From assembly GCA_965220045.1 (NCBI GenBank), contig OZ244803.1, positions 2,711,901 through 2,775,900 on the forward strand: a stretch of 64,000 bases of DNA. Reading direction: 5' to 3'. The notes under the pieces were generated by a model that saw nothing but the letters and a program-made list of their open reading frames with translations, did no database searches and was not told where the DNA came from. The position numbers and the translations under genes were made by a program. Each line of letters opens with the position of its first letter. The stretch's first letter is position 1. Below, in pieces: positions 39,717-55,298 of this stretch. The stretch comes from Chloroflexota bacterium. GTDB lineage: Bacteria > Chloroflexota > UBA11872 > VXOZ01.

Positions 39717-41048
39717 CTATTGTTGTTGGGCACGTCTGCGCGCCGCCCGGGCATGGGCGAAAAAGCCTTCCGCCTCAGCCAGCACGGCGGCGGGTTCGGC
39801 GATGGCGGCGGCCGTATTGGGGTCGAGCGCAACGACGCTGGTGCTCTTATAGAATTCTTGCACGGTAATGGGAGACGAGAAGCGCGCCGTGCCTCCCACC
39901 GGCATGACGTGGCTGGGTCCGGCGATGTAGTCGCCCAGCACTTCCGGCGACGCGCTGCCGACGAAGATGCCCCCGGCATTGCGGACTCTCCCCACCCACT
40001 GCCACGGGTCACGAGTGAGCAGACAGAGATGCTCCGGCGCGTACTCCCCGGCCAGGTCTACTGCCGTTTCCAAATCGTCCACCACCACGATGCCGCCGTT
40101 GTGCAACAGCGAATAGGCGGCCTCCTCCTGACGCGGCAACGCTGCCAGTTGCACCGCTAGTTCCTTCTCCACATGTCTGGCAAGTTCCTTGGAATCCGTT
40201 ATCAAGAGGGGCGTGGCCAGAAAGTCATGCTCGGCCTGGGCGAGCAGGTCGGCGGCCGCTTCTGCCGGATCGGCGTGGGCGTCGGCCACAATGAGGGTTT
40301 CGGTAGGACCGGGCAGTTGGTCGATGCCCACCTGTCCATAGACCCGCTGCTTCGCCAAAATCACAAAGATATTGCCCGGGCCGAGGATCTTGTCCACCCT
40401 TGGCACTTGCGCGGTGCCGAAGGCGAGTGCGCCGACGGCCTGCGCGCCGCTGATCTTGAAAACCCGATGCACGCCTGCCACGGCCGCGGCGGCCAGTTTG
40501 AGCGGATGCACACTGCCGTCAGCGCGGCACGGGGTCGCAAGGATGATCTCTTCCACGCCCGCCACACGTGCCGGCACGACTGACATGAGCACCGACGAAG
40601 GATAGACCCGCTCAGTGCCGGGCGAGTAGATGCCGACCCGCTGGAGCGGACGCACCATCTCGCCAAGACCAGATTCAAAATCCATCCAGGAGTTGCGCCG
40701 TTGGCGCTCGTGGTACGCGGCGATGCGGGTATCGGCGAGACGCAGCACGTCCAGCAGAGTGTCGTCAACTTCACGCACGGCGGCCTTGATTTCCGCGTCG
40801 GAAACTTCCAATGGCTCGGGCACGACGCCGTCGAAGTGCGCGATGTACCGACCAAGAGCCGCGTCCCCTTCGGCCTGCACGTCCGCCAGGATGCGGTCCA
40901 CGACCTCACCGGGGTTCAGCGCGGCGCCAAAGACCTCCTGAATGCGCGCCGCCACCGGCGCGGGGATCTCTTCGCTGCCCAACGGCGTGCGCCTGAGCAC
41001 AGTCCGGCGTGCCTCTGCGAGGTCGGTGATGATACGGGTAACGGGCAT
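39717..41048 (-). CDS. hisD: Histidinol dehydrogenase
   Basis: ...KILGPGNIFV.LAK..V.G.VGID..PGPTE.L..AD..ADP...AADLL.QAEHD... and the SPEHL-type region ...APEHLCLL... are HisD signatures. Confidence 0.9.
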   Translation of the reverse strand: MPVTRIITDLAEARRTVLRRTPLGSEEIPAPVAARIQEVFGAALNPGEVVDRILADVQAEGDAALGRYIAHFDGVVPEPLEVSDAEIKAAVREVDDTLLDVLRLADTRIAAYHERQRRNSWMDFESGLGEMVRPLQRVGIYSPGTERVYPSSVLMSVVPARVAGVEEIILATPCRADGSVHPLKLAAAAVAGVHRVFKISGAQAVGALAFGTAQVPRVDKILGPGNIFVILAKQRVYGQVGIDQLPGPTETLIVADAHADPAEAAADLLAQAEHDFLATPLLITDSKELARHVEKELAVQLAALPRQEEAAYSLLHNGGIVVVDDLETAVDLAGEYAPEHLCLLTRDPWQWVGRVRNAGGIFVGSASPEVLGDYIAGPSHVMPVGGTARFSSPITVQEFYKSTSVVALDPNTAAAIAEPAAVLAEAEGFFAHARAARRRAQQQ

Positions 41049-41317: not shown

Positions 41318-42097
41318 CTAGACCACGTACTCCGCAATGCGTTCCAAATAACGGCGCGCGCTGCCGGCCTCCGGCGGCACGGCTGACAGCATCTCCCGCA
41401 CGGCGCCCTCGCCGTCGAAGGGCACAAAGCGGAATTCCACGTCCCAGTCGCCGCCGGTGTGCGTCAAGACCGCATAACACGCGCGGGCGTCATGCTTGCG
41501 CTCGTAGGTGTGGCCCACCGCACCGGGGTTGACCACCAATATTCCATTATAGCGGCGTTCCACCCGCCGGTGGCTGTGAGCGCACAGGACGAGGCGGGCT
41601 GACACGTCCTGGAGCTTGGCGTGGAGTTCGTCGTCGGACGTGCTCGGCTGGTCGGGGCCGGGCGGCACGGCGTCGGGCGCGGGATAGATCGACTTGGTGA
41701 GACTACCGGGGGAGCCATGACAGAGGATTGTATCCGCATCCTCGATCAGGGAAAGAGACCGCTCGGAGGGTAGCTCGCGAAACCGCGCCACGCGCTCCAC
41801 GCCGATCTGCGCGACGGCCTGTCGCTTGAGATAGCGCACACCCTCGCCGGTGTCGTATTGCGAGATCTCGACGCACTCGTCGCCAAGCAGCCTCTGCAAG
41901 CCCCGTTCCATGTTCCCGGCAACGCCCGCGTGGGGAAGGTCATCCAACGCGTCCAACACGGCGCGATTGTACGGAAACTTCACAATGCTATCCCCCAACA
42001 CCACGACCATGTCGGGCAGTTGCAGATGGAGATCGGCTAGGACAGCCTCAAGGGCATGGATGTTGCCGTGAATATCGGCGAGGACGGCAAGGCGCAT
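41318..42097 (-). CDS. Metallophosphoesterase (calcineurin-like, YfcE/MJ0936-type)
   Basis: MRLAVLADIHGNIHALEAVL...MVVVLGD......GN.E......HSH motif order of the metallophosphoesterase fold. Confidence 0.8.
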   Translation of the reverse strand: MRLAVLADIHGNIHALEAVLADLHLQLPDMVVVLGDSIVKFPYNRAVLDALDDLPHAGVAGNMERGLQRLLGDECVEISQYDTGEGVRYLKRQAVAQIGVERVARFRELPSERSLSLIEDADTILCHGSPGSLTKSIYPAPDAVPPGPDQPSTSDDELHAKLQDVSARLVLCAHSHRRVERRYNGILVVNPGAVGHTYERKHDARACYAVLTHTGGDWDVEFRFVPFDGEGAVREMLSAVPPEAGSARRYLERIAEYVV

Positions 42098-42375
42098 GGC
42101 TAGCGTTCGAGTAGGTTAATGGCAATGAAAAGGTCGCGCATAGACTGCCCTTCCAGTGTACCGCACGAGGTTCTAGCGTTGCGAGTGGCCACGAAGCAGA
42201 ATTGGCGATGTGTGTATCGGCAAGCGACATCCATTCATCTGCCTCGATGTAATCTCTCATTCTCTAGCGCGAATTTGAGGCAAATTCTTCGGTCGGTGGC
42301 AGCTTTCATTTCCTTGAATGAGTGTTGGTGCCGTGCTAGAGTGGCAGCACTGTATGCAACTGCTGCGCCGGTTGG

Positions 42376-42402
42376 GCGCAGGTTGCAAACCTGCGCTACC
42401 GG
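42376..42402. repeat. Family-C palindrome gcgcaggttgcaaacctgcgctaccgg
   Basis: Near-perfect palindrome. Copies at 35443, 35623, 43556, 61266 and the array at 9630. Confidence 0.8.
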
Positions 42403-42473
42403 AGAGCAATGCATGCGCGTCTAGTTGGCTAGCCGCTCCGGCCTGCCGCGTGCGCAGAGGAGAATCCACGTAC

Positions 42474-43523
42474 ATGAATGTCGAGCAAGCTGCGTCTACC
42501 AGTTCCTCCTTGGCCATAGAGACTGAGGACGGTGGCCTTGCCCGGCGCGCGGTGCGGTTCTTGCGGGCGCGGATTGGGCTGGTTTCCAATAACCGCGACC
42601 TCATTGCTAACCCGGAGTTTTTCGAGAGCCGCGCGGTGATCCAGTCACTGGTGACCAATGTGCTGGCGGTGCCGGAGATTCCCTATGCAGAGCCGTTGGA
42701 CGCGCGCATGTTCGTATTGGACCTACCCGATGCGGCACCGTCAGTGCAGGTAGGTGATGACGAGGTTCTTGCCGTAGCGGACTTTACCTCTCTGGAGGCG
42801 GCGTGCTCGGACCGGCGCTGCTCGCTCTTTGGCAATCTGGGGCTGTTCTTCCGCTTTGCGCTGGCGGTGCTGGAGCGCCGCCACGGCATCTTCAGCTTCC
42901 ATGCCTCCGCCCTGTACCTGCCTGAGCAGAACGAACTGATGCTCGTAGTTGGCGGGGCGGGCGCGGGCAAGACGGTCTTCTTGCTGGAGGGACTGCGGCG
43001 CGGCTACCAAGTCTTCAGCACGGAAATGACGCACTTGGAGTTTCGCGGCAGCGACGTGGTCTTTCACAAGGGCTCGCTGGTGGACAACATTCGCCTGGGC
43101 AGCTTTGTCTATGACTTTCCTGACGCGGCGGAGCGGCTGGGGCTAGATCTGCCTGACGTCGCCAACGTCTGGGGGCATAAGCTGGCCGTAGACCTGGCGG
43201 CGGTTGCGCCGGAGGCGGACGAACTCATCAACCCGCGCCTCTCGCTGCTCTTCCCCAAAATCGAATCAGGTCGCGAGACTGCCGTCGTCTCCGACGTGCA
43301 GCCGGGTCCCAAAATGGTCAAGCTGCTGTTCGACAACGCTTCGGAGAAGATTGGCGGTACGGGCTTGCTGTACGACCGTATCCCGTTACCCGGCACCGAT
43401 GCGCCGGACATCGCGGCCAAACGTCTCGAGGGCATGAACCGCTTGGTACACGAGCATACTGACTTGGTCGTCCGTGCCAAGGACATCCTGGCCGGTACGC
43501 ACAATTGCATGGAAGGGCTTTAG
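42474..43523 (+). CDS. HprK-related P-loop kinase (HPr kinase C-terminal-domain-like). Start taken at the Met at 42474 with GAGGAGAA RBS
   Basis: FHASALYLPEQNELMLVVGGAGAGKTVFLLEGLRRGYQVFSTEMTHL parallels the HprK C-domain (LHGS.V..NG.GVLI.G.SGSGKSE.AL.L..RG). The track ORF from 42318 runs across a family-C repeat. Confidence 0.6.
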   Translation: MNVEQAASTSSSLAIETEDGGLARRAVRFLRARIGLVSNNRDLIANPEFFESRAVIQSLVTNVLAVPEIPYAEPLDARMFVLDLPDAAPSVQVGDDEVLAVADFTSLEAACSDRRCSLFGNLGLFFRFALAVLERRHGIFSFHASALYLPEQNELMLVVGGAGAGKTVFLLEGLRRGYQVFSTEMTHLEFRGSDVVFHKGSLVDNIRLGSFVYDFPDAAERLGLDLPDVANVWGHKLAVDLAAVAPEADELINPRLSLLFPKIESGRETAVVSDVQPGPKMVKLLFDNASEKIGGTGLLYDRIPLPGTDAPDIAAKRLEGMNRLVHEHTDLVVRAKDILAGTHNCMEGL

Positions 43524-43555
43524 GTAGGGAGGAGAGATTAGCAGTTTTGGCAAGT

Positions 43556-43583
43556 GGCGCAAGTTTGAAACCTGCGCCACCGG
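43556..43583. repeat. Family-C palindrome
   Basis: ggcgcaagtttgaaacctgcgccaccgg. Confidence 0.8.
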
Positions 43584-43644
43584 GGACGCAAGGCGCGGTG
43601 ACTCTAGGATGGCGACTAGTGCGCGCCATTTGGTTTCCCCCTGA

Positions 43645-43725
43645 CCCTCGCCCTCACCCCCGAATCAGTCGATACTTCGTATCGGGTACGGGGCAGGCTC
43701 TAGCCCTCTCCCCCAGGAGAGGGAA
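43645..43725 (+). repeat. Family-E repeat, long form
   Basis: ccctcgccctcacccccgaatcagtcgatacttcgtatcgggtacggggcaggctctagccctctcccccaggagagggaa. Confidence 0.8.
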
Positions 43726-43800
43726 CTGTTCGCCTCTTTTTTGGTGTGAGATGATCGAATCGATAAGTGCCTAGCTTTGGAAATGAGGAGTAAACAAACG

Positions 43801-44604
43801 ATGCCACAGGCTTGGGAAGGAATTGTCGATCCGCCGGTGCAGGCGCGTGTTACCCAGAAGCCGCGCGCTACCGGCTATACGATGGTGCTCGATAAGGGGT
43901 TGGGCATGCACGCCACCGCCGATCTGATGCAGATGGCGGCGCACGTCATTGATTCGCTCAAGCTCACGTTCGGTACCTCGGCGTTCTATGAGGAAGACGT
44001 GCTGCGGCAGAAGATCGCGCTTGTCCAGGACGCCGGCGTAGACATCTACCCCGGCGGCACGTTTCTGGAAGCGGCCGTAGCGCAGGGCAAGACGGCCGAG
44101 TACATTTCGCGTGCCCGGGAACTAGGGTTCAATACCATCGAGGTCTCCGACGGCACCATCGAGATGGACGCCGCCACGCGCAGCGACATTGTCAAACGCG
44201 CCAAGGACACCGGTTTCAAAGTGCTCACCGAGGTGGGGAAGAAAGACCCCAAGGACGCAATCGAGACGACCATCATGCACGAGCAGATTGCCGCCGATCT
44301 CGCGCAGGGAGCTAACAAAGTGATCGTGGAAGCGCGGGAGTCCGGCCACGGCGTTGGCATTTTCGATAGCAGCGGTGACGTGCAGACCGAGATGGTGGAG
44401 GAGATCCTGGGCGGCATCAACAACGTGGAAGACCTCATTTGGGAAGCGCCCATCAAGAATCAGCAGCAGTGGCTTATACTCGAATTCGGCCCCAACGTCA
44501 ACCTGGGCAATATTCCGCCGGAGGACATACTCGCGCTGGAGGCGCTGCGTTGCGGTATGCGGGGCGATACGCTGAAGCGCGCCCTGGCCGGCACGTGGCC
44601 GTAG
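43801..44604 (+). CDS. (2R)-phospho-3-sulfolactate synthase (ComA) family protein. Start taken at the ATG at 43801 (GAGGAG RBS about 10 nt upstream); the track ORF begins at TTG 43777
   Basis: KPRATGYTMVLDKGLG....DLM..A...ID.LKLTFGTSAFY.E..L..KI.L.Q.AGVD.YPGGT.LE.A..QG....Y......LGF..IEVSDGTI... follows the ComA family pattern. Confidence 0.75.
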   Translation: MPQAWEGIVDPPVQARVTQKPRATGYTMVLDKGLGMHATADLMQMAAHVIDSLKLTFGTSAFYEEDVLRQKIALVQDAGVDIYPGGTFLEAAVAQGKTAEYISRARELGFNTIEVSDGTIEMDAATRSDIVKRAKDTGFKVLTEVGKKDPKDAIETTIMHEQIAADLAQGANKVIVEARESGHGVGIFDSSGDVQTEMVEEILGGINNVEDLIWEAPIKNQQQWLILEFGPNVNLGNIPPEDILALEALRCGMRGDTLKRALAGTWP

Positions 44605-44821
44605 AGTTCACTGCCCCAAGAGCGGCGCAGCCGGACTGTAGATGGTCGGAGAAACCGGCTTTCAGTCAGCCGGAGTGGCTGGTAGGGAGAACTCTACAGC
44701 AACGCTGCACTCGCTGTGTGTCGCTGCAACCGCGTAGGAACGATTTGAATCTGATGCCGTGGGGAAGAGTCGCTGGCGTTCTATTCCTAATCGAAAGCGC
44801 GGGCCGTCCCGCAGGCCCGGC

Positions 44822-46054
44822 TTAGGCCTCGTGCCACAGGGGCGCAATCCTCGCCCTATACTCCTCTTCGATCAGGGCCGCATATTCGGGCCAGACACCC
44901 ATCAGCGCATCGAGCCGGTCATTGTTCATGTCTTCGTGGGGCGTGATGGCGTCGTAGAGTCCGGTGACGATGCGGTTTGCTGCCGGACTGAGAACACCCT
45001 CCAGATTCTTCAAGACTGATCTAGCGTCCGCGCCGCCGTCATCCACCAAAGCCTTGAAGAATTGCGTGCTCAGAGCCTCTATCTCTTCGCCGAGATGCAT
45101 GCGCAGCCACTCGCCGTCGAAGAGATCCGGGCGGGCGTGCCGGAAGAAGACGGCAATGCCGAAGCGCCCGCGTATGCCCGCCAGCGCCTGCAACGCATAG
45201 CGTAGTCGTTGCTGTCGTGCCGCCTGAACGGAGTCTTGCTCGGGCAATTGTTGACAGAACGCCGTCACCAGGTCTCGCAATTCGTAGACGATCTGTAAGA
45301 GCTCGTCAGCAATGGCGGCGCACTCTTCGTCCGACATCTCCACGCGGTAGTCCGCCGCGACGATGGCGTTCAGCCTATCCAGTAGCTCCCGGTTGTCTAC
45401 CACTTCAGGCAATACCTTGAGCGCCGCCGGTTTGGTAGGCACCCACGCGTTGCGCAGCAGGCCGCACGCCAGCTTGGCCGCCGGCAGGAACCAGTGGGAC
45501 AGCGCGCCGTACACGGGATAATACGGCAGGTACTCGGGCAGCAGGTTGATGGGCGGATCGAACTGCTCCGCGCGCGGGACCAGATAGATGTTGAACTTGC
45601 CGCAGGCCTCGTGCTGCTGGGCTTGGGTGAATGGCGGCTCCTGCGCCGCCAGCACGTCATCGAGCGCATTCGCCGCGCCGCCGATGCGGTGCCAGTCGCG
45701 CACTTCGCCCATGAGTGGTAGAAGCTGCCGCGCCTCACGCGGAGAACAGATGAATCCTGGCGGGTGCTCCAAAATGCGGGCGTAGTGCGGCGCCTCTTCC
45801 AGCAATTCCACATACGACTCGCCGCCCGCGCGGCTGATTGCCAGCCAGGTCTCGGCGTCGGGGGCGTCCGCCACTGAGCGCAAGTCGTGATCGCTGAAAC
45901 CGGGCGTCAGCGTGCCCAGGTGATGCTTGCAGTAGACAGCGGTATCAAGACCGGGCACGTGCTCGGCAATATAGCGACCAAGCTCGGTGCCAATATAGCG
46001 GTAATCGTCGAGTGTGAGTGTCATGTCATGAATCGTTGTCTGTAGAATCGTCAT
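44822..46054 (-). CDS. Hypothetical protein. Possible minimal nucleotidyltransferase-like N-terminal motif (G-x10-S-D-H-D-L)
   Basis: Only LGTLTPGFSDHDL resembles a Pol-beta-type NTase motif. The rest is helical with no family match I can make by eye. Confidence 0.3.
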   Translation of the reverse strand: MTILQTTIHDMTLTLDDYRYIGTELGRYIAEHVPGLDTAVYCKHHLGTLTPGFSDHDLRSVADAPDAETWLAISRAGGESYVELLEEAPHYARILEHPPGFICSPREARQLLPLMGEVRDWHRIGGAANALDDVLAAQEPPFTQAQQHEACGKFNIYLVPRAEQFDPPINLLPEYLPYYPVYGALSHWFLPAAKLACGLLRNAWVPTKPAALKVLPEVVDNRELLDRLNAIVAADYRVEMSDEECAAIADELLQIVYELRDLVTAFCQQLPEQDSVQAARQQRLRYALQALAGIRGRFGIAVFFRHARPDLFDGEWLRMHLGEEIEALSTQFFKALVDDGGADARSVLKNLEGVLSPAANRIVTGLYDAITPHEDMNNDRLDALMGVWPEYAALIEEEYRARIAPLWHEA

Positions 46055-46078
46055 TCCCGCGAAAGCGGGAATCCATCT
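46050..46078 (+). repeat. Family-A hairpin
   Basis: gtcattcccgcgaaagcgggaatccatct. A stem-variant copy (gactccggctttcgccggagtgac) follows at 46150-46173. Confidence 0.85.
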
Positions 46079-46265
46079 CCGTTGATTTTCTGGCCTTCGG
46101 CCCCGACTGGTCTATGGGGTAGGAGTACTTTGTTTGAGTCCCCACCCTAGACTCCGGCTTTCGCCGGAGTGACGGATTGTTAGGGACAACTCAACCTCTC
46201 GGCCCCATCATCAGTCTGACCAATAGCGAGAGTCACCTGTTGTCGCTTCTTGCACACGCCGGAGG

Positions 46266-47303
46266 TCAAGACACCGCCGCTGCCGGAGTCTGCGTAAACG
46301 TATACGCCTCAAATTCATTCTCACAGGGATAGCCGTAGCTCACGAGGAGGCTGCGCTCCCGCGCAATCATGATGTAGCCCATGATGCTCTGCGCCAACGC
46401 ATCATGCCGGCAGATATTGGCGGGTTCCGTGTGGGTACGCGCAATCCGCATAAGCTGCTCCAGCGAGTGGGGCTGCTCCGCCGTCAGACGCTCGAGCACC
46501 GTGAAGCGGTCACGGCTGTTCTGCGCGGCCGGGCCGCCGTCGTTCTTAAGCACGGCCTGCATGTCGTCGGTCAAGTAGTGGTTTGTATTCCAAATGGTGT
46601 GGCTATCCATGCGCCGCACGGCCATACGCGTCGGCGAGCGCTCCACCACGATAGCCGCGCCGCTGGGATCCGTAAACATCATGTTGGTGCCGTGGTTCAT
46701 GATGGGCGTGCGCGCCACCAAGTCGGCCACGGCATCAACGGAATCGGCGAACTGCAAGAGGTAACGCAGCACCGTATTGGTGGGAATGCCGTCCCAATCG
46801 CTGTCGTTGTTCGGAATACTGCTCCCGCCGTAGGTGAGACCCGCCTCGTTCACACCCGCATTCAGCCAGGTGGTGCCGACGTAGGTCACTCCGACATAGG
46901 CGTGCCCGCGGTCGGGGCGCAACTCCTGCAGGACGTGAAACTGCTTCATGTCCGCATCCACATCGTTGGACTTGAAATGAATAGTGCCCTGGGGCGTATC
47001 CGCCAAGGCGACATTCGTGCATTCTACGCGCGAGCGGCTGATCTCCTGGCAGGCGTTGTAGGCAAAGAGATCGTCAAAGTTTACGTTGGCCGCTTCCGCG
47101 ATGGCGTGAAGTTCCTCCAGCGACTCGGGGAACACTCTGTCCAGGTTGCGCTCGACCTGCCGCAGCACGCGTCTCCCGTGGGCATCATCCCAGCCCCGGT
47201 CCAGCGCAAACCGCTTCACCGCCGCGGGAATTATGTCCGCAAACGCCGCGCCATGCTGGAGTCCCATCTCGCGGGGCGTGCCTGACTGAACCACTTGTCG
47301 CAT
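46266..47303 (-). CDS. Peptidase C45 / acyl-CoA:6-aminopenicillanic-acid acyltransferase-like Ntn hydrolase. Start taken at the Met at 47301-47303 (GAGGAGG RBS)
   Basis: MRQVVQSGTPREMGLQHGAAF..., ...GVNEAGLTYGG... (Ntn-hydrolase GxNExGL motif), about 345 aa. Confidence 0.55.
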   Translation of the reverse strand: MRQVVQSGTPREMGLQHGAAFADIIPAAVKRFALDRGWDDAHGRRVLRQVERNLDRVFPESLEELHAIAEAANVNFDDLFAYNACQEISRSRVECTNVALADTPQGTIHFKSNDVDADMKQFHVLQELRPDRGHAYVGVTYVGTTWLNAGVNEAGLTYGGSSIPNNDSDWDGIPTNTVLRYLLQFADSVDAVADLVARTPIMNHGTNMMFTDPSGAAIVVERSPTRMAVRRMDSHTIWNTNHYLTDDMQAVLKNDGGPAAQNSRDRFTVLERLTAEQPHSLEQLMRIARTHTEPANICRHDALAQSIMGYIMIARERSLLVSYGYPCENEFEAYTFTQTPAAAVS

Positions 47304-47415
47304 GGAAAATGCCTCCTCAATGCAACTGTACTCTTTCGATATGTGCCGCCGTTTCTTGACCGCTTCAGAGTGCTGCAGCCCGCAGCAACTCACCATCAAC
47401 TAATGGCCGAGAGGG

Positions 47416-48300
47416 CTAATTGCGTATCCCTTCCACCGCCGCGTACACGCTCCCGATAGTGCCCCCAACAACCTCGTAGCCCTCTTCATCGGCAATGATG
47501 TTGATTTCATCCACGATGGCATCGAACGCCTGCCGCTTTTCGCTGGTTGCGTCTTCGTAGAAGTGCGTATTGTGGGTGAAGGGCATGATGATTCTGGGGG
47601 CGTCGTCTGGGTATTCCGCCATGTCCGCCCAGGCTTGGCGAATGGTCTGCCGGTGGGAAGCGCCGTCGCCGCCCTCGATGCGGAGTTCCATGGGGAGATG
47701 GGGAGCGCGGCGGCGCACCTGGTCGCAGGTTAGCGGAATTTCGTAGAAGTCAAGATCGCCGGCAAAGAGGCGGTTCGCCTTATGGGCGTAGTGGGCGAAG
47801 GGCACGGCGCCCTGCCACACCGCCTTGGCCAGATCATACTGGCGGCCCGGCGACGAAACGCTGCCGTGGGTGAAGCCCGTGGCGACCAACGCGGGATAGG
47901 TGTTGTCGTTTGCCGAAAAGTTGCCGCCCCTGAAAGTGGTCGGCCTCTTGCCGATAGCGTCGGCCCACTGGTCGGCGACGGAGTCGAACATGTCCACCTG
48001 CTCTTCGAACGTGAATCCGCCGAGATAGTCGGCATAGCCGAGGCGGGTATCCTGCGGATGGATGTGCAGGCCGAGCTCAAAGCCGCGCTTCTCAAGATCC
48101 CAATACAGGGAGGGCTGGGCCGCCGCCGTCTGCGCCACGATGAAAAGTGTCGCACTGAGACCGTTCTCTTCCAGCGCATCCGCGAAACTCGTAACCGACC
48201 GTTCGCTGATGCTCCATTCATCCGGCCCGCCGTGAATGGAATCGTCCATGAGCTGTTCGCAGTCCTGCGTAAAGATGACGTAGAGCGGTTTACCTGCCAT
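47416..48300 (-). CDS. Polysaccharide-deacetylase-like (CE4/PuuE-like) protein
   Basis: YVIFTQDCEQ (TxDxE-type motif 1), ...LHIHP... His motifs, about 290 aa. Weak call. Confidence 0.45.
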   Translation of the reverse strand: MAGKPLYVIFTQDCEQLMDDSIHGGPDEWSISERSVTSFADALEENGLSATLFIVAQTAAAQPSLYWDLEKRGFELGLHIHPQDTRLGYADYLGGFTFEEQVDMFDSVADQWADAIGKRPTTFRGGNFSANDNTYPALVATGFTHGSVSSPGRQYDLAKAVWQGAVPFAHYAHKANRLFAGDLDFYEIPLTCDQVRRRAPHLPMELRIEGGDGASHRQTIRQAWADMAEYPDDAPRIIMPFTHNTHFYEDATSEKRQAFDAIVDEINIIADEEGYEVVGGTIGSVYAAVEGIRN

Positions 48301-48456
48301 GAATCTCGATCCTTTACATCTTCAGGAGATCATCTCTCGTTTAGATACTCATGTGGAGCATTTCGCCAAGAGTCGTTTCCCATTTACGTTCACAAGCTTA
48401 CCGAACGTCTAGTCAGTCCAATTGAAACGAAGCAAAACACAAAAGGGTTGAGTTTC

Positions 48457-48523
48457 GTCATTCCGGCGAAAGCCGGAATCCATCTTCGCAGCAAACCTGG
48501 ACTCCGGCTTTCGCCGGAGTGAC
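48457..48523. repeat. Two back-to-back hairpins: family-A stem variant (gtcattccggcgaaagccggaatccatctt) and inverted stem variant (ggactccggctttcgccggagtgac)
   Basis: The stem changes cccgcg to ccggcg and gcggga to gccgga are compensatory. Flanks are conserved. Confidence 0.85.
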
Positions 48524-48639
48524 AAGCCTGGCCGCCTGTTTCATCCCCACCATTCCACGCCGGCGGGGCACAAGGCCCAGCGCTACATCCCAAGAGCCAA
48601 ACCCCCAAGAGCTACACTATCAAGAGCTGTGCTCCGGTT

Positions 48640-48678
48640 CCCTCTCCCTGGGGGAGAGGGTTAGGGTGAGGGGGAACC
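48640..48678. repeat. Family-E repeat, short form
   Basis: ccctctccctgggggagagggttagggtgagggggaacc. Confidence 0.7.
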
Positions 48679-48740
48679 TCCTTCACTCTCAAATCCTTGT
48701 GTCCCCGCCCTACCGCATTGGCGTATCCATTGACAACTAG

Positions 48741-49853
48741 CTAACAGCACTTCTCCTCCTGCGCCATGCGGTCCACGTCCACCATCACGTCGGTCAGCAA
48801 ATCCACGTCCACCTCGTACCACAAACCGAAGGTGCTTGTGCCGCCCGGCCCCAAGATTTCCTCCGCGATTTCGCGTACCACGCCACGGTCCGCGTTTTGC
48901 ACGCCGAAGTCAGCAAATGTCGAGGGCAGGTTGACCGACTGGTTGAAGCGGATCAGCTTGCGTACCTCGGCTTCGCCCTGCTGCATGAGCGCAACTGAAA
49001 TGAGTATGCCGAACGCCACTTGCTCGCCGTGCACGCCTTCGTTCGTAGCATGCTTCGAGAATCCGGGGTGCAGGCCGTGCTCGCCGCCCACCACGCCACA
49101 GGCCGGTCCGGCCACGCCGCCGCCGTAGACAATCGCTTCGACCACCTTGTCCACCGCTTCCGTGGCCACGCCGCGCTCGCAGGCCTCGTAGGCCGATGCG
49201 CCGTAGCCGAGGATCGTGTCATACGTCCATTCCGCGATGGCGATAGCCGCGCCGGTGGGAAAGACATTGTCGAAGCCGAGCATACGTTCGGTGCCGCTGT
49301 TCTGCCGGAGTTCGCGCGCGATGCGGCCGCCCGTCCACGTGGGCAGCGCATCGGCCATTCCGGCCGCCAGCCAGCGCCCGCCGCCCTGGGCAATGATGCG
49401 CGTGTCGGCAATCACCGTATGCGGGCCGACGTACCACACGTTGCGGTCGGCGTCGCCCTCGATGCTGGCACTGAAGGTCGCCGTCGCGTTGGTCGATGCC
49501 ACCGTCGGCAAGCTGATGAGCCAGGCGCCCATTTCGTGCGCGATGGCCTTGGCGGCATCCACCACGCGCCCGCCACCCGCGCCGATGACCACGTCCGCGC
49601 CATACTCTTTGCCCATTGCCACGAGGGCATCCACTTCCGGGCGCTTCTTGTCGACATGGCTACCGTGCTCGACGTGGTACGGAATGCCGTGCTCGTCGAG
49701 CGCGCCGGTGACGGTATCCTGGATGGCCGCCACGGCCCGTCCGCCGCCGACGATAAACGCTTTGCTGCCCAACGCCGCGGCATGCGCGCCAACGTCGCCA
49801 ACAACTCCCGGCCCCACCACAAAGCGCAGCGGGTGAACGATTGCTTTCTTCAT
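48741..49853 (-). CDS. Glycerol dehydrogenase family protein (iron-containing ADH / DHQS-like superfamily)
   Basis: GAGGGRVVDAAKAIAH..G..LISLPTVASTNATATFSASIEGD......VIADTRIIA....LAAGMADALPTW and ...HPGFS....EGVHGEQVAFGILISVAL align motif-for-motif with E. coli GldA as I recall it. Confidence 0.8.
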   Translation of the reverse strand: MKKAIVHPLRFVVGPGVVGDVGAHAAALGSKAFIVGGGRAVAAIQDTVTGALDEHGIPYHVEHGSHVDKKRPEVDALVAMGKEYGADVVIGAGGGRVVDAAKAIAHEMGAWLISLPTVASTNATATFSASIEGDADRNVWYVGPHTVIADTRIIAQGGGRWLAAGMADALPTWTGGRIARELRQNSGTERMLGFDNVFPTGAAIAIAEWTYDTILGYGASAYEACERGVATEAVDKVVEAIVYGGGVAGPACGVVGGEHGLHPGFSKHATNEGVHGEQVAFGILISVALMQQGEAEVRKLIRFNQSVNLPSTFADFGVQNADRGVVREIAEEILGPGGTSTFGLWYEVDVDLLTDVMVDVDRMAQEEKCC

Positions 49854-50426
49854 AGCTGATTATTCCCTTAGCAAATGTAGAATTGATTCGTTTCAATCAC
49901 TGCGGCAGAGCCCGTTCATCCTCGCAAATTGCCGCTAATGCCCGTCATCCGACTCCCAAGCCCGTCTATTCATCTCCGATTCACTGAGGGAGGCAAACGC
50001 TGCAGCGCTCGCAATCTCATCTTCGTACTCGTCCCAGTCGCAATCCTCTCCGACTTCATCGGAGATTTCGGCGCGTTTGGCGCAGAGATTGCCTTCTTGT
50101 TCTGCAGTCATGAGCTTCCTGTCCCAGATTCGATTGCTATGACGAGTCGATCTTGCTGCACATCTGTCGCGTTGGATGGCAACGACCAAAGCCATCGGGC
50201 GATATCGGAATACCACTGTGATTGTGTACTCGTGCCGCCGTAGGCGCTGATTCCCTTGGACCTTGTTTGCCGATCACGTCTCCAGATACTTGAACGCAGC
50301 ACTCCTTTGACAGTATCCACGCAGACTTGCCTTGAATGCTGCCACATCCAGCTTCAGTGGCTGAGCTCGTGCGGCTACGGCCCGCAAGCGAACGTCCCAT
50401 GACCTGCGCGTAGTGCGCTCGTGCGC

Positions 50427-51644
50427 CTAGCCCACCGCCACCGGCAGGCGCATGTCGGATGCCACGGTGTTCATGCTCTCCTTGATGGCCGCCGCCACGT
50501 AGCGCAGGTCCTCGTCGGTCATGAGCGGATGGATGGCCGGGCAGAAAAGCCGCCGGCCGGCATCCGTGGAAACCGGCACGTCGTCCGGACTGTGCCCCAT
50601 GCGCACCATGTAACCGACGTAGTCCGGCAAGGAGGCGTTCATGATCCACGTGCCGACGCCGTGATGGCCGATAAGGCGGTCCGCAAACTTGTCGCGCGGG
50701 TCGCCGGCCCAATCCTGTTCGAACATGAGCGTATAGCCGTACCACACGTGGTGGTAGCCCTCCGGCTCGATGGGGAAGATCAGGCCGGGAATGTCCTCGA
50801 TCAATTCCACAAAGTCGGCCACGCGCTGCCGCCGCGCCTCATTCATTTCGTCGAGCCGTGTGACTTGGATCGAACCCGCCACCGCCTGCAATTTCGTCAT
50901 GCGGAAGTTGGTGCCCCAGCCGTCCAGCGCGCTGCCAAACGAGCGCATGCTGTTCACGAACGTGGCGTAGTCGTCATCATCTGTTGTTACCATGCCGCCT
51001 TCGCCCAGCGTCGTCATGTTCTTGCTGGTCTGGAAGCTGAAGATGTTCATGGCGCCCTTCTTGCCGACCTTGGTGCCCTTGTAGCCGGCGCCGACGGCGC
51101 GGGCCGCGTCGCAAAGCACCGGAGGCGGGCCGTGCACGGGATGCGGATGCCGCTGGGCGACGTCTTCCAAGGCGTCCACGTCGGCGGAGAGGCCGTTGTT
51201 GTGGACTGCCAGGATCGCGCGGGTATTCGGCGTCATGCAGCGCTCGACGTCGTTGGGGTCGATGTTGAACGTCGCCGGATCGATCTCCGCCAGCACTACC
51301 TTAGCGCCGACACCCATCACGCAATGCGACGTCGCCTTAAACGTGATGCCCGGCACGATGACCTCATCGTCGGGACCGAGTTGCAGGGCATGGATCGCAG
51401 CGTCCAAGCCGGTACCGCACGAATTCACCGCAAGCGCGTGCTTCACGTCGCAGTATTCCGCGAACTCTTGCTCGAACTGGGCAATTTCCGGCCCGTGAAA
51501 GCCGATGCGCCAGTCCATGCTCTCCTGCAAGCTGGCGTTAATCGCGTCTACCTCTGCTTGCGTGTACCACCCGCCAAGGATCGGAAACGGAAACTGCCGC
51601 TTGCCATGCTCCAGCAGGTTTCTCTCTTCACTTGTCAATTCCAT
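50427..51644 (-). CDS. DegT/DnrJ/EryC1/StrS family PLP-dependent aminotransferase
   Basis: Family profile including ...AVNSCGTGLDAAIHAL....DDEVIVPGITFKAT..... and the catalytic Lys region ...FSFQTSKNMTTLGEGGMV... Confidence 0.85.
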   Translation of the reverse strand: MELTSEERNLLEHGKRQFPFPILGGWYTQAEVDAINASLQESMDWRIGFHGPEIAQFEQEFAEYCDVKHALAVNSCGTGLDAAIHALQLGPDDEVIVPGITFKATSHCVMGVGAKVVLAEIDPATFNIDPNDVERCMTPNTRAILAVHNNGLSADVDALEDVAQRHPHPVHGPPPVLCDAARAVGAGYKGTKVGKKGAMNIFSFQTSKNMTTLGEGGMVTTDDDDYATFVNSMRSFGSALDGWGTNFRMTKLQAVAGSIQVTRLDEMNEARRQRVADFVELIEDIPGLIFPIEPEGYHHVWYGYTLMFEQDWAGDPRDKFADRLIGHHGVGTWIMNASLPDYVGYMVRMGHSPDDVPVSTDAGRRLFCPAIHPLMTDEDLRYVAAAIKESMNTVASDMRLPVAVG

Positions 51645-51719
51645 CGAAAACTCCTCACTTCACTGCAACTCTTAGCCAGAATTATTGCCACTCAATAGGA
51701 TTCTGTCTCGACGAGTCTA

Positions 51720-53474
51720 TCACGATTGCACGACAACCTGCCGCGCTTCGGCTCCGTTGCTGCTGATAGGCACCGGCACCAGGGCATAGGTGTAGCCGTA
51801 AGCATCTTGCAGCGACACGTCCACGGCTTCACCATCCACCGTGGCGTGCGGAGTCTCACCGTTCTGCTGCGGCACCATGAGTGTAAAGCTGCCGCTGGGA
51901 GAGCTGCCGGTGACCGTGCAGGAAAAGCTGCCGTCATTCCACGCGCTTTGCGAAACCTGCGCCCGGTCGCGCGCGCGCACAAAGTCCGCCCACTCAAACG
52001 CGCTCAAGATGGGCAATCCAAGCTCGTTTGCATAGTCCCAGCACTGGTTCTGATAGGCACTGCTGTACGTATAGAAAGAAACCGGGTGAGAGAGCATTGT
52101 CAGCGGACTGAAATAGCGTTCCTTCTTATCTATCATCCCCTGGCGCGTCGCCTTCGCTTCACCCACGGGGTTCGATGAGAGCTGGGCTTTCACGGAGGCG
52201 TCGTCGTAGGCTTGGGTGAGTTGCTGGAAGACTTCGATGATTTCACCGTCGGTATCCACGAACTTGCCGGGATGCCCGGAGCCGTTCGTGTACTGCAGCC
52301 ACTGGTGGCGGATGCTCAACAGGTTCGTATCCAGCACCACGCCCACGTCTTCATAGACGCGCGCAAGGTCCACGTAGCCTTTCCAGCCGAGGCAGTGATT
52401 GCGGTTGGCAATGACCGTTTCGCCGCCGTAGTGCTCCCGGAAATAGCCGGTATCGCGACGCACGATCTCTTCCATCACGGCGTCTTGTTCTTCATTGACG
52501 TACTGCGGATCGAAGGCGTTGTGATGAATGCCGAATGAGTGGCCGCGAGCGCGCCAGCCCTCTACCCGCTCCGGCGTCGCAATGGTGTACTTGGAAGGCC
52601 CAAGCATGAGGTAGATGGTGATGTGGCCGTTGTGGGCCTCCACAGAATTCATCAGCGCTTCGAAGGCTTCCAGCGGCGAGTAGTCGTCGTCGGAATCCAG
52701 CACCACCGTGCTCTTAGTCTCCGGCGTGTCGTAGTACCACAGGCGCGGCTGTGGATGCTTGGCGATGGCATTAATGGCGTTGCCAAGCAGCATGGCGTGG
52801 ATGTCCGCCTGCGGCAGGTGCATGCGGCGCGGGTCGATGTGGCCGGCAAACGCATCGTTGGGGCGGTAGGGATTACCGAAGCCAAGGGTGCGCCAGCCGT
52901 GATGGACCGGATTGCCTTGGCGTATCAGCGCCACGGCCTGGGCGAGATCGTAGCCAAAGACTACTGCCTGTCCTTTGCCGAGCGGCACGTGCAGGACGGC
53001 GGGATAGGACGTTTCGACCTCGGCATCCAGGTAGACCCGCGCGACTTCGCGGGTGCCTTCCGGCAGTTGCAGCGGTTCGTAGTTGTCGACGGGCAGATGC
53101 GTCTGAACGGACTCATGCGGCACGCCCGCGCTGATGGCATTATCCGGCAACGGACGCACATAGGCCGGAAAGGCCACGGTATCCGTAGGCGCCAGACCCA
53201 ATGCCTCCGTCAGCAGCCGCGAGGGCCGCAGCGCGATGAGGCGTCCGCCCCCCTTCACATAGGCTGCCAGCCGGTCCACGTAGGCACGGCGCGGCAGACA
53301 GGGCGTGACGATCACGGCATCATACGCTTCGAGCCGCGCCAGCGAATCCTGGCCGATGGGCTGCACGTCAAAGTCCGCAAAACCCTCCGCCTTCAGCACT
53401 GCAGCGGTATACGGCCCATAAGTATTCGCGCGGTTACCCGGCTGGGTGAGAATGAGCATGCCCACGGTGGACAA
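51720..53474 (-). CDS. Hypothetical 584 aa protein (possible deacetylase/glycoside-hydrolase-like central domain)
   Basis: No confident motif. Central VVLDSDDDYSPLEAFEALMNSVEAHNGHITIYLM region vaguely CE4-like. Confidence 0.35.
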   Translation of the reverse strand: MSTVGMLILTQPGNRANTYGPYTAAVLKAEGFADFDVQPIGQDSLARLEAYDAVIVTPCLPRRAYVDRLAAYVKGGGRLIALRPSRLLTEALGLAPTDTVAFPAYVRPLPDNAISAGVPHESVQTHLPVDNYEPLQLPEGTREVARVYLDAEVETSYPAVLHVPLGKGQAVVFGYDLAQAVALIRQGNPVHHGWRTLGFGNPYRPNDAFAGHIDPRRMHLPQADIHAMLLGNAINAIAKHPQPRLWYYDTPETKSTVVLDSDDDYSPLEAFEALMNSVEAHNGHITIYLMLGPSKYTIATPERVEGWRARGHSFGIHHNAFDPQYVNEEQDAVMEEIVRRDTGYFREHYGGETVIANRNHCLGWKGYVDLARVYEDVGVVLDTNLLSIRHQWLQYTNGSGHPGKFVDTDGEIIEVFQQLTQAYDDASVKAQLSSNPVGEAKATRQGMIDKKERYFSPLTMLSHPVSFYTYSSAYQNQCWDYANELGLPILSAFEWADFVRARDRAQVSQSAWNDGSFSCTVTGSSPSGSFTLMVPQQNGETPHATVDGEAVDVSLQDAYGYTYALVPVPISSNGAEARQVVVQS

Positions 53475-53768
53475 CCTCCTGAATATGGATAGAGTCTTTG
53501 GCTTACTTTACGTGAGGAGTATACCAGTTTCTCGGCTATGGGCTTGATGCGATGGAACCCACTGTTTCTGGATTGCCGACCCGCTTGCGGCGTGCGCTTC
53601 AATCGCAGGTTGGCAAACGTGATTTGCCCAATACCGCATAGCCTTTGTCTGACGTTTCTTTGCCATCAGGATGCTTCGCGGACGACGTAGTGAAGAGTTT
53701 ACACGGCCTGCTGTAGCTAGTACTCTGAACGCTACGGCAGTGGGAGCGTCAAAGAGGATGCACGTTGC

Positions 53769-55298
53769 ATGTTGACTGCGTGGGTACTCATCGTCTTCCT
53801 GGCGTACTTTGCGGCGCTCATCGGCATCGCGGTGCTTCGCACCCGCCAGATGCAGGAGATGTCGGACTACGTACTCGCCGGCCGCAAGGTCGGCAGCTTC
53901 ACCTCGGCCTTGAGTTCCAGTTCGTCATCCACCAGCGGGTGGACCATGCTCGTCTTCCCGGCGCTGGCATTCATGAACGGCGCCGTGGAATTCTGGACGG
54001 TATTCAGCATCGTCCTGGGTTTCTGGTTGACGTGGACCATTTATGCAAAGCGGTTGCGCCGGTACACCATCGCGACGGAGAACTCCCTTACCTTTCCCGA
54101 GTTTTTCGAGAATCGCTTTGAGGACAAGAGCGGCGTGCTGCGCACGCTTTCCGCCGCGATAGCCCTCTTCTTCATCATCTTCTACATTAGCTCCGGCTTG
54201 ATCGCCGGATCCAAGCTGCTGAATACGGTATTCGGCCTCGAAGGCATTGTGGGTGTCCTGGTGACGCTCGTGGCCGTCGCATCGTATACCTTCATCGGCG
54301 GTTTTCTCGCCGTTTCCCGCACGGACGTCTTCCAGGCCATTATCATGCTGGCCGGCTTCATCATCCTGCCAATCACGCTGCTATTCCTCACCGCCGAGCC
54401 CTTTCAGGGCCTGGAGGGTACGGCCGCCGGCTTCTGGAACCCTTTCACCGACGCATCCGGCAAGGGCGTCACCCTCACCTTCATGCTCTCGACAGCCGGC
54501 TGGGGGTTGGGGGCCTTCGGCTCGTTGCGCGTCTTGCAGCGCTTCATGGCCGTGGATAGCGAACAGCGCATACGGCCCAGCCGCGACATCGGCACACTGT
54601 GGGCAACGCTCATATTCTTGTTTGGTCTCTTGCTGGGGCTCGTGGCTCTGCCGGCCCTTGGCGAGGTTGGGAGGCTCGATGAGGTCACCGCCGATCCGGA
54701 GCGCCTCTACCTCGTCGCCGCGACCGTCTTCTTCCCGCCCATCGTAGCGGGGGTCCTGCTGTCGGCGGTGATCGCCGCCGTAATGAGCACGGCGGACTCC
54801 CAGTTGCTCTTGGCTTCAGCGATCGCCACCGACGACCTGCCGCTTGTCCGAAGGTATGCCTACGCCAAACGGTACGTTTATGTGCTCGGCGCGTTTGCGC
54901 GCGTGTGGCTGGGCCGCTTTCTGCTGGTCGTGGTCGGCGTAATCGCGGCATTGCTTTCCATCTTCAACCCCGATTCCGTGTTCAATCTGGTCTCATACGC
55001 GTGGGGCGGCATGGGCGCGGCCTTCGGACCCCTACTCTTGCTCGCGCTCTACTGGCGCCGCTTCAACTATTGGGGAGCACTCACGTCCCTGCTCACCGGC
55101 ACGGTGGTTGCCTCGATTTGGGGCTACTTTTCCGGCGGCCCCGGCGGCATCATGGACATCCAGCCGGCCACACCGGGCTTCATCATCACCATCCCCGTTG
55201 CCGTGCTTGTCACGTTGCTTACGGCCAAGCCATCCGCAAAGGCGACGGAAGTGTTCGATGACGTCGCTACCGGCTGGTCCGCTGCGCGCGAGAGCTGA
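53769..55298 (+). CDS. Sodium:solute symporter family transporter (PutP/SSF-like)
   Basis: 13 predicted TM helices, N-terminal ...YVLAGRKVG...SALSSSSSSTSGWTMLVFPALAFMNG... characteristic of SSF. Confidence 0.85.
   Translation: MLTAWVLIVFLAYFAALIGIAVLRTRQMQEMSDYVLAGRKVGSFTSALSSSSSSTSGWTMLVFPALAFMNGAVEFWTVFSIVLGFWLTWTIYAKRLRRYTIATENSLTFPEFFENRFEDKSGVLRTLSAAIALFFIIFYISSGLIAGSKLLNTVFGLEGIVGVLVTLVAVASYTFIGGFLAVSRTDVFQAIIMLAGFIILPITLLFLTAEPFQGLEGTAAGFWNPFTDASGKGVTLTFMLSTAGWGLGAFGSLRVLQRFMAVDSEQRIRPSRDIGTLWATLIFLFGLLLGLVALPALGEVGRLDEVTADPERLYLVAATVFFPPIVAGVLLSAVIAAVMSTADSQLLLASAIATDDLPLVRRYAYAKRYVYVLGAFARVWLGRFLLVVVGVIAALLSIFNPDSVFNLVSYAWGGMGAAFGPLLLLALYWRRFNYWGALTSLLTGTVVASIWGYFSGGPGGIMDIQPATPGFIITIPVAVLVTLLTAKPSAKATEVFDDVATGWSAARES

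Follow-up and report, generated by a model that had tools for sequence, protein, structure and literature searches.

The kinase-ComA pair and its distribution

What does a bacterium do with a gene of the ComA (phosphosulfolactate synthase) family that stands directly behind the gene of an unannotated P-loop kinase? The question was raised by the locus at positions 42474 to 51644 of a 64,000-nucleotide stretch of contig OZ244803.1 from a Chloroflexota bacterium; the whole stretch is referred to here as the window. A first-pass annotation had described the locus as a repeat-bounded island of seven genes whose joint role would be the synthesis or breakdown of a small molecule or glycan substituent that is both sulfonated and aminated. 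All seven open reading frames (ORFs) were present at the coordinates that it gave, and analysis of the region showed two independent gene modules side by side and not one seven-gene island. Module A (42474-44604, + strand) contained the kinase and ComA genes, module B spanned 44822-55298, and the two were convergent transcription units. For module A, the balance of the evidence favours a pair of enzymes that splits (R)-sulfolactate into phosphoenolpyruvate (PEP) and sulfite, thereby reversing the ComB and ComA steps of coenzyme M (CoM) biosynthesis.

One genome per species was scanned, which yielded 68 kinase loci, all of them from metagenome-assembled genomes (MAGs). ComA was located immediately downstream of the kinase gene and on the same strand in 66 of the 68, which bears out the association between the kinase and this clade of ComA that had been put forward for checking. 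The two exceptions were a Bathyarchaeia homologue (37% identical) that is followed by LarA, and a locus whose sequence ends 0.9 kb past the kinase. The two genes overlapped or were separated by at most 3 nucleotides at 50 of the 66 loci, and spacers of 81-729 nucleotides, which held repeats, were found in the window's clade only. The 68 loci were distributed over the window's clade of Chloroflexota (15), other Chloroflexota/Dehalococcoidales (6), Thermodesulfobacteriota/Syntrophaceae/“Deltaproteobacteria” (23), and Rokubacteria/Methylomirabilota (16), with 1 each in Armatimonadota, Gemmatimonadota, Anaerolineae, Bathyarchaeia and a Sphingomonadaceae bin, while 3 were unclassified. The pairing spans at least six phyla, and it was also present on metagenome contigs (L001 and L003-L008, in our numbering of loci). 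The close relatives of the window were MAGs labelled Chloroflexi/Chloroflexota.

The second gene of module A, ComA (43801-44604, + strand), matched PF02679 with an E value of 2.9e-93 and 312 bits (cutoff 25.2) and the equivalog model TIGR03849 with 344 bits (cutoff 280), in agreement with its first label, and its product was 42% identical to M. jannaschii ComA (1QWG). An alignment of 65 sequences, comprising 1QWG and 64 kinase-linked ComAs with that of the window included, showed 60 columns with a conservation of 97% or more, almost all of them without any variation. Among these columns were Glu103 and Lys137 (M. jannaschii numbering), which are reportedly the proposed Mg/acid residues of ComA and which we take to be catalytic. 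Both were kept in all 65 sequences, and the loss of the Lys and Glu residues that had been considered earlier was therefore not seen. None of the partners found in CoM clusters (ComB, ComC, ComDE, XcbA-E) was detected within 10 kb on either side of ComA on the source contig, and the earlier view that the locus does not serve CoM biosynthesis was upheld.

Features of the kinase

The first gene of module A (42474-43523, + strand) encodes a 349-residue P-loop kinase of an unannotated family, with a GGAGAGKT P-loop, and we propose that this kinase acts on (R)-sulfolactate as a 2-kinase, doing the opposite of what ComB does. The kinase matched no model in Pfam or NCBIfam (NCBIfam at E<=0.01); PF07475 and the Pfam model of phosphoenolpyruvate carboxykinase (PEPCK) were unmatched even at E<=10, where generic P-loop noise was the only result, and a search of the kinase profile against PDB sequences produced KaiC P-loops only, at E>0.05. 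The AlphaFold model of the kinase was confident (pLDDT 86, pTM 0.85). A Foldseek search with this model retrieved ATP-dependent PEPCKs at an E value of 6e-9 over about 370 columns, and HprK/P at about 1e-3 over 150-200 columns that covered the P-loop domain only. The N-terminal domain aligned in the fold search with the substrate-binding domain of PEPCK and not with the N-domain of HprK. The model thus has the two-domain fold of PEPCK as well as the P-loop-domain fold of HprK. The earlier description as an HprK-C-like kinase stands at the superfold level for the P-loop domain but not beyond it, as PF07475 was unmatched and PEPCK is closer by fold. Judging from the model, a small-molecule kinase with a two-domain, PEPCK-like architecture in miniature is the better description.

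Alignment with hhalign placed the FHASA...GGAGAGKT segment of the kinase on MHCSA...GLSGTGKT of E. coli PckA, in 40 columns only, around the His/P-loop motif, and with a probability of 39%. Membership of the PEPCK family by sequence was rejected, on the grounds that no Pfam model matched, that only the His/P-loop motif aligned, and that the protein has 349 residues against 540. Members of the kinase family were 330-350 residues long and had many invariant Arg and Lys residues; the invariant positions included R115, R135, H143, K166, R207, K236, R267 and K292. More than 500 homologues were found, all of which lacked both an annotation and a Pfam domain. When 1.84 billion cluster representatives were searched exhaustively with the kinase profile, only 190 matched; among the 150 matches listed, all had at most 426 residues and none was PEPCK-sized. 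At the level of sequence, the family is new, compact and isolated. A cassette of an HprK-related kinase with a nucleotidyltransferase (NTase), which had also been considered, was not borne out, with zero NCBIfam matches and no co-conservation of the kinase with the 400-residue protein of module B.

Distant homologues of the kinase with 37-40% identity were present in Bathyarchaeia (L074) and Anaerolineae (L075). At the former (L074:9971-12206), a LarA-like gene, apparently split, followed the kinase, and there was no ComA within 10 kb. Some members of the family may act on a different 2-hydroxyacid.

Neighbouring genes of the pair

The ORFs flanking the pair were clustered, and Pfam and NCBIfam searches were run on representatives. 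The census covered the two nearest ORFs on each side at the 51 loci outside the window's (sponge) clade. TctABC importers and GntR/FCD regulators were among the neighbours. The Dehalococcoidales neighbourhood contained alanine dehydrogenase, a class-III aminotransferase, the TRAP system DctPQM, the kinase, ComA, ferredoxin, POR and Ldh_2. The best NCBIfam match of this Ldh_2 was L-sulfolactate dehydrogenase (400 bits, under the cutoff of 500), and the next-best family was malate/lactate dehydrogenase (264 bits). Directly upstream of the pair, 12 loci contained PPDK (TIGR01828, 1357 bits). Some Thermodesulfobacteriota loci contained GntR/FCD, TauE, 2-hydroxyacid dehydrogenase and LarA genes. 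LarA neighbours were present at 17 loci in three phyla and matched the equivalog of the Ni-dependent malate racemase LarAH5 at 517-526 bits (cutoff 462).

Genes for the handling of sulfite were also found. The TauE sulfite-exporter family followed ComA directly in 5 Rokubacteria loci and was nearby in L004, L037 and L076, and in several Rokubacteria loci the next genes were those of a fused FeS/NrfD protein and of a molybdopterin oxidoreductase. The Armatimonadota locus (L068) contained the kinase, ComA and a YeiH-type putative sulfate exporter. DsrAB lay within 2-7 kb of the pair in L005, L038, L069 and L077; DsrC was called in L005 and L038, and a DsrN-like gene accompanied DsrAB in L005. 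ComB was present at 1 of the 51 loci (L035, Syntrophaceae), where the kinase, ComA, LarA and a ComB-family 2-phosphosulfolactate phosphatase stood in a row (L035:207-4063).

Two recurrent layouts were recorded in addition. A same-strand operon (L039:2446-17285) contained AOR, coenzyme A (CoA)-transferase A/B, D-2-hydroxyacid dehydrogenase, PPDK, kinase, ComA, MaoC dehydratase, TctCBA and a MutL-type protein, the last of a glutamate-mutase-associated kind. Similar operons were found in 8-11 Thermodesulfobacteriota loci, and their CoA-dependent part is unexplained by the sulfolactate model. In Rokubacteria/Methylomirabilota (L057:10001-17084, L065, L042, L043 and L063), the order was kinase, ComA, TauE, FeS/NrfD and a 943-residue molybdopterin oxidoreductase, whose best NCBIfam match was a weak one to PhsA. 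This layout presumably resembles that of membrane-bound Mo sulfite dehydrogenases, and the FeS/NrfD protein and the 943-residue oxidoreductase may form an undescribed sulfite-oxidising complex. A flavoprotein gene after ComA in L069 and L077 was considered as AprA and dropped, as NCBIfam placed it as a fumarate reductase/succinate dehydrogenase subunit.

Proposed pathway and alternative explanations

PEPCK transfers phosphate to the C2 oxygen of the enolate derived from oxaloacetate, and sulfolactate is the sulfonate analogue of malate. In the proposed pathway, the kinase would use ATP to phosphorylate the 2-hydroxyl of (R)-3-sulfolactate, giving (2R)-phospho-3-sulfolactate in the reverse of the ComB step. 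ComA, working in the elimination direction in an enolase-like manner, would then release sulfite and PEP. The PEP would enter central metabolism, where PPDK or pyruvate kinase would regain ATP and POR would oxidise pyruvate, while the sulfite would be exported by a TauE/YeiH-like transporter, oxidised, or respired via DsrAB. LarA-type racemases and ComC-like or D-2-hydroxyacid dehydrogenases would feed (S)-sulfolactate, sulfopyruvate and cysteate into the (R)-sulfolactate pool. Overall, the pathway would be the ComA-ComB-ComC sequence of methanogens run backwards, with the net reaction of SuyAB and with PEP as an intermediate. The backward direction is suggested because the kinase occupies the position of ComB in the company of importers, catabolic-type regulators and a racemase, and because enzymes consuming PEP or pyruvate and sulfite exporters or reductases adjoin the pair. 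We infer substrate and direction from the observed pairing, kinase fold, ComA active-site columns and neighbourhoods.

Several points weigh against this pathway. The substrate of the kinase is a prediction from its context, and all 68 genomes are MAGs. ComA has been demonstrated only as a synthase that converts PEP and sulfite into phosphosulfolactate (PMC9457059). The elimination would proceed without an enol-to-keto driving force and would therefore have to be pulled by removal of PEP and sulfite. The ComB gene in the kinase operon of L035 would imply a futile cycle with a sulfolactate kinase. That DsrAB and PPDK adjoin the pair would fit just as well if sulfite and PEP were its substrates and not its products, and LarA scores as a malate racemase while Ldh_2 falls under its cutoff, so that malate or oxaloacetate is a possible substrate. 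Within the window, the pair was not accompanied by any gene for a transporter, a racemase, a dehydrogenase or the handling of sulfite.

Some of these points would suit the opposite direction, in which ComA adds sulfite to PEP and the PEPCK/HprK-fold enzyme, in place of ComB, dephosphorylates phosphosulfolactate by passing the phosphate to ADP or by phosphorolysis to pyrophosphate, the sulfolactate formed then serving as osmolyte, as biosynthetic precursor or as a sink for sulfite. Experiments have shown ComA activity in the forward direction only (PMC9457059), the adjoining DsrAB and PPDK could be sources of sulfite and PEP, respectively, L035 has a ComB gene, and HprK/P-type enzymes are known to be reversible as phosphorylases. 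Nevertheless, the TRAP and tripartite tricarboxylate transporter (TTT) systems are uptake systems, sulfite exporters of the TauE family stand directly after ComA, and GntR/FCD regulators and a racemase fit the catabolism of an external, stereochemically mixed substrate. The phosphoryl-transfer potential of a 2-phosphoester is low as a matter of general biochemistry, which makes ATP formation unfavourable, and a dedicated phosphatase, ComB, exists for the step, yet it was found at only 1 of the 51 loci scanned. The opposite direction is therefore considered unlikely.

Still less likely is a role for the kinase as a compact PEPCK that makes PEP for ComA from oxaloacetate and ATP with release of CO2, the oxaloacetate being fed by malate racemase and 2-hydroxyacid dehydrogenases from imported C4-dicarboxylates. 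PEPCK was indeed the best structural match over both domains, the LarA neighbours scored above the malate-racemase equivalog cutoff, transporters of the DctPQM and Tct types typically carry di- or tricarboxylates, and D-2-hydroxyacid dehydrogenases occurred in the same operons. However, the kinase is about 190 residues shorter than ATP-dependent PEPCK and has no sequence similarity to it beyond the His/P-loop motif. With no ComB, ComC-DE or Xcb genes behind the pair, phosphosulfolactate would lead nowhere, and the sulfite exporters would be left unexplained. Furthermore, Ldh_2 scored 400 bits as a sulfolactate dehydrogenase against 264 as a malate/lactate dehydrogenase, and the adjoining PPDK already interconverts pyruvate and PEP. 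An HprK-like regulatory protein kinase that controls ComA or carbon flow, for which the tight pairing could be that of regulator and target, is highly improbable given the lack of a PF07475 match, an N-terminal domain that is PEPCK-like and not HprK-like, many invariant Arg/Lys residues that suit a small polyanionic substrate, and a translational coupling at roughly 1:1 stoichiometry that is more typical of consecutive enzymes.

The cleavage of (R)-sulfolactate by kinase and ComA is accordingly the explanation that we prefer. Whether the pair amounts to an unrecognised route of C-S cleavage, one that is widespread, oxygen-independent and radical-free and that uses ATP activation before ComA releases sulfite and PEP, is a claim that we regard as evenly poised.

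Relation of the two modules

Fifteen close relatives of the kinase (80-91% identity) were compared for layout. In 11 of them, genes for a LarA-family racemase and an M20 amidohydrolase came after ComA; 3 had something else there, and the layout of the window recurred in 1 only (L012). The block of module B with its symporter of the SSF family was found without a nearby ComA in L009, L010 and L011; in L009 it lay about 37 kb from the kinase-ComA pair on the same 6.7-Mb contig. The seven-gene unit was therefore not conserved in related genomes, while the kinase-ComA sub-pair within it was, and the notion of the seven genes as one functional unit was abandoned. Since modules A and B are independent, there is also no basis for a sulfonated, aminated product.

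The possibility that all seven genes nonetheless make or degrade such a molecule draws on their adjacency in the window and in L012 and on five family assignments that proved correct. It is hardly credible, as the two halves are convergent, 11 of the 15 close relatives have LarA and M20 genes after ComA, the block from C45 to DegT recurs with the symporter and without ComA (L009, L010, L011), the repeats occur window-wide, and an insertion sequence (IS) element flanks the block.

In the window's clade (L006-L008, L013-L024 and L064), ComA was usually followed by a LarAH5-type racemase and a TIGR01891 M20 amidohydrolase. Neither was found in the 64-kb window. Sulfatase pairs were seen in relatives either upstream of kinase-ComA (L006, L008) or beside module B (L009, L010).

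Genes of module B

Module B was a lineage-restricted cluster, present in L009, L010, L011, L012 and L081. Its genes were arranged on the same strand in the order 581-residue unknown protein, DegT, Fe-dependent alcohol dehydrogenase (Fe-ADH), deacetylase-like protein, C45 and 400-residue protein, with a divergent SSF symporter. The first gene of this minus-strand operon (51720-53465, - strand) encodes the 581-residue protein, which had no family match in Pfam or NCBIfam and was kept in this leading position in L009, L010, L011 and L081. The DegT/DnrJ/EryC1-type aminotransferase (50427-51644, - strand), dependent on pyridoxal phosphate, matched PF01041 at an E value of 1e-85, and its closest solved relatives were QdtB, perosamine synthetase and scyllo-inositol transaminase. 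The glycerol-dehydrogenase-like (GldA-like) Fe-ADH (48741-49853, - strand) matched PF00465 and PF13685; it scored 235 bits with NF006941, under the cutoff of 336, and hit glycerol dehydrogenases of the PDB at an E value of 7e-50. The polysaccharide-deacetylase-like protein (47416-48300, - strand) matched PF01522 with 31.9 bits (cutoff 23.1), and the sequence search found no solved relative of it. The N-terminal nucleophile acyltransferase/hydrolase of the C45 family (46266-47303, - strand) matched PF03417 and, with 190 bits (cutoff 85), NF040521, and its closest solved relative was acyl-CoA:6-aminopenicillanic acid acyltransferase.

The last gene of the order (44822-46024, - strand) encodes the 400-residue protein that had been called NTase-like. 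No Pfam, NCBIfam or PDB match was obtained, with Pfam searched up to E<=10. About 50 homologues were found, none annotated, of which the full-length ones were at least 75% identical and came from the same lineage. A G-T-x4-G-F-S-D-H-D-L motif was the sole hint of an NTase, and the structure model (pLDDT 46) was unusable. The protein was missing from 65 of the 66 kinase-ComA loci and was found elsewhere without kinase-ComA. For neither this protein nor the 581-residue protein were relatives detectable outside the clade. Of the seven family labels first assigned, profile searches thus confirmed those of ComA, C45, the deacetylase-like protein, the GldA-like enzyme and DegT, while the kinase and the “NTase-like” protein had no Pfam or NCBIfam match.

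The divergent gene (53769-55298, + strand) encodes a PutP-like SSF Na+/solute symporter, which matched PF00474 at an E value of 2.8e-72 and scored 404 bits with TIGR02121, under the cutoff of 515. It had the same divergent position in L009, L010 and L011. Module B brings this symporter together with an aminotransferase, a dehydrogenase for polyols and two enzymes of the amidase/esterase type, and it has the appearance of a pathway coupled to uptake, with an N-acylated amino-polyol or an aminosugar-like compound as the solute.

Repeats and insertion sequence

The first-pass annotation had placed a structured repeat in each intergenic gap and had taken repeats as the bounds of an island. Repeat copies were found in only 4 of the 9 intergenic gaps, namely upstream of the kinase, between kinase and ComA, between the 400-residue protein and C45, and between the deacetylase-like and GldA-like genes. 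Every repeat family had further copies in the window (for example near 157, 865, 2316, 9445 and 17951), and more dispersed copies lay near 33314, 35641, 55359, 57859 and 61287. A hairpin repeat at 46048-46087, GTCATTCCCGCGAAAGCGGGAATCC, similar to repetitive extragenic palindromic (REP) elements, had at least 8 copies in the window, at 156, 864, 17949, 33313, 46048, 48455, 55358 and 57789. Two inverted copies of the GTCATTCCCGCGAAAGCGGGAATCC type, with 33-nucleotide arms that were 85% complementary, occupied 48455-48528, and these too had other copies in the window. The kinase-ComA spacer (43524-43800) held a dispersed repeat copy at 43651-43723, of which other copies were present at 9445-9507 and 9324-9344. 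With copies dispersed over the whole 64 kb, the intergenic repeats are ordinary, genome-wide REP-like elements and no marks of an island border. The GC content of the window was about 61%, and the region at 42-52 kb (about 0.60-0.62) was the same inside and outside, without a compositional break. As the repeats were not specific to a border, the composition did not shift and the genes were not conserved as a unit, the region did not qualify as a genomic island.

Two further repeat arrangements were recorded. A second REP-like family, the perfect palindrome GTAGGGGCACGATATATCGTGCCCCTAC, had 4 intergenic sites, at 4218, 9172, 18026 and 39677. A tandem array of seven 23-nucleotide units (9629-9792; consensus CAGGTTACAAACCTTCGCTACCC, 73% matches) was located in a stretch of intergenic sequence and small ORFs between sulfatase and solute-binding-protein genes.

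Adjoining the symporter gene of module B was an IS transposase gene (55580-56587, + strand), with rve domains recorded in L081. A 76-nucleotide stretch at 55540-55615 was repeated, with 99% identity, at the end of the window (63925-64000). The transposase gene and this duplication suggest how modules A and B came together, and the two modules appear to have been joined by rearrangement in this lineage of sponge-type Chloroflexota. The rve-type IS region as a whole covered 55540-56602 beside the SSF gene, with related sequence at 63852-64000, and blocks of a “AATTCGTTGACAGA” repeat related to the IS end sequence occurred at 33644-34161. The IS-end repeats and the AATTCGTTGACAGA blocks are probably IS ends or derivatives resembling miniature inverted-repeat transposable elements.

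Other features of the window

The upstream neighbour of the kinase was a metallophosphoesterase gene (41318-42097, - strand; PF12850, PF00149), with the same neighbour in L007 and L081; it is linked to the kinase by position alone. Further upstream, a gene of the histidinol dehydrogenase family (39717-41048) was considered as an HpsN-type dehydrogenase of 2,3-dihydroxypropane-1-sulfonate (DHPS) and dropped; because it adjoins IGPD (hisB), it is most simply HisD. Homologues and called genes supported shorter starts than those of the longest ORFs for ComA (43801), the 400-residue protein (46024), C45 (47303) and the 581-residue protein (53465). Rfam and tRNA scans gave no match in the region, and a scan for promoters and terminators at 42000-46300 gave counts no better than those of shuffled sequences.

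The rest of the window contained sulfatases, solute-binding proteins, a peptide ABC system, DUF3604 paralogues and a second DegT, a gene content typical of such symbionts. Three genes for family-1 solute-binding proteins alternated with two sulfatase genes at 2551-11196, where duplicated segments were found (3110-3261 with 10376-10527, and 2666-2729 with 9932-9995). The DUF3604-family paralogues at 15648-17891 and 61704-63641 had a 72-nucleotide conserved stretch in common, and the second DegT-family aminotransferase was located at 59227-60570.

Literature and implications

A literature search found “sulfolactate kinase” in no paper among roughly 8 million, and searches for desulfonation by ComA and for phospho-3-sulfolactate in SAR202 likewise gave nothing; no paper describing a kinase-ComA desulfonation route was found. 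Papers on phosphosulfolactate since 2021 dealt with CoM biosynthesis or routine annotation. A 2024 overview of C3-sulfonate catabolism gives no routes other than SuyAB and CuyA, and has pairs of dehydrogenases carry out the stereoinversion (PMC11193023). A SAR11 pangenome paper guessed that a ComA flanking a TTT transporter turns phosphosulfolactate into PEP, and mentioned no kinase (PMC11796062). What appears to be new here, if our somewhat favourable assessment of the pathway holds, is the combination of a kinase family with a known enzyme working in reverse for the desulfonation of a sulfonate. In a sponge metatranscriptome study, ComA transcripts were counted as methane-related (PMC4412061), and the present results suggest that such a reading is unsafe.

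Were the pathway true, ComA could no longer serve as an automatic marker of CoM or methanogenesis in metagenomes, and most bacterial ComA homologues would be recast as catabolic enzymes. The unannotated kinase family would receive its first function, with sulfolactate 2-kinase as a new enzyme built on a small version of the PEPCK fold. Sulfolactate, DHPS and cysteate have a major share in the cycling of organosulfur in the sea and in soil, and sulfite derived from sulfonates fuels H2S production in anoxic habitats. The pathway would explain how many uncultured lineages that lack SuyAB and CuyA could use C3-sulfonates, by an energy-neutral route that delivers PEP and not pyruvate, and in sulfate reducers, Rokubacteria, Dehalococcoidia and sponge symbionts it would tie the turnover of C3-sulfonates to the respiration or oxidation of sulfite.

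Comparison with known systems

The nearest known system is the CoM biosynthesis of methanogens (ComA/ComB/ComC), with which the pair has in common a ComA of the same family, above the equivalog cutoff and with conserved active-site columns, and the implied intermediates PEP, sulfite, phosphosulfolactate, sulfolactate and sulfopyruvate; dehydrogenases resembling ComC also adjoin the pair in Dehalococcoidales. Homologues of ComA are also found in the sulfolactate synthesis of Bacillus and in the bacterial Xcb synthesis of CoM. Unlike CoM clusters, the loci of the pair lack ComB (with one exception), ComDE and XcbA/C/D/E and have the kinase at the position of ComB, for which it would be the inverse because the phosphatase step can be reversed only by a kinase. 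Importers, regulators and sulfite-handling neighbours set the loci further apart, the hosts are not methanogens or alkene oxidisers, and the proposed flux is the opposite one.

The SuyAB pathway with SlcC/ComC (Paracoccus, Chromohalobacter; PMC11193023) has the same proposed net reaction, from (R)-sulfolactate to a C3 keto or enol acid and sulfite, the same need to invert (S)-sulfolactate, and the same association with a sulfite/sulfate exporter and with cysteate or DHPS feeders. The proteins, however, are unrelated. In the kinase-ComA pathway, C-S cleavage would follow an ATP-dependent phosphorylation in an enolase-like step, the product would be PEP and not pyruvate, and stereoinversion would probably be carried out by a LarA racemase of the Ni-pincer type and not by two dehydrogenases.

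With the ATP-dependent PEPCK PckA, the kinase has in common a His-x-Ser-Ala motif followed by GxxGxGKT and, as proposed, phosphoryl transfer at the C2 oxygen of a C3/C4 acid, but it is shorter (330-350 against about 540 residues), has no Pfam PEPCK match, belongs to a separate family and is not expected to decarboxylate. In contrast to HprK/P and the HprK-related cassettes, the kinase matches neither PF07475 nor NCBIfam models and has a different N-terminal domain; its conserved partner is ComA, and no HPr, PqqD or NTase partner is conserved. Finally, the proposed ComA step would be the sulfite counterpart of enolase, a beta-elimination from a 2-phospho-3-substituted propanoate to PEP, although ComA, a TIM barrel, belongs to a different family and its leaving group would be sulfite, so that the likeness to enolase is one of function only.

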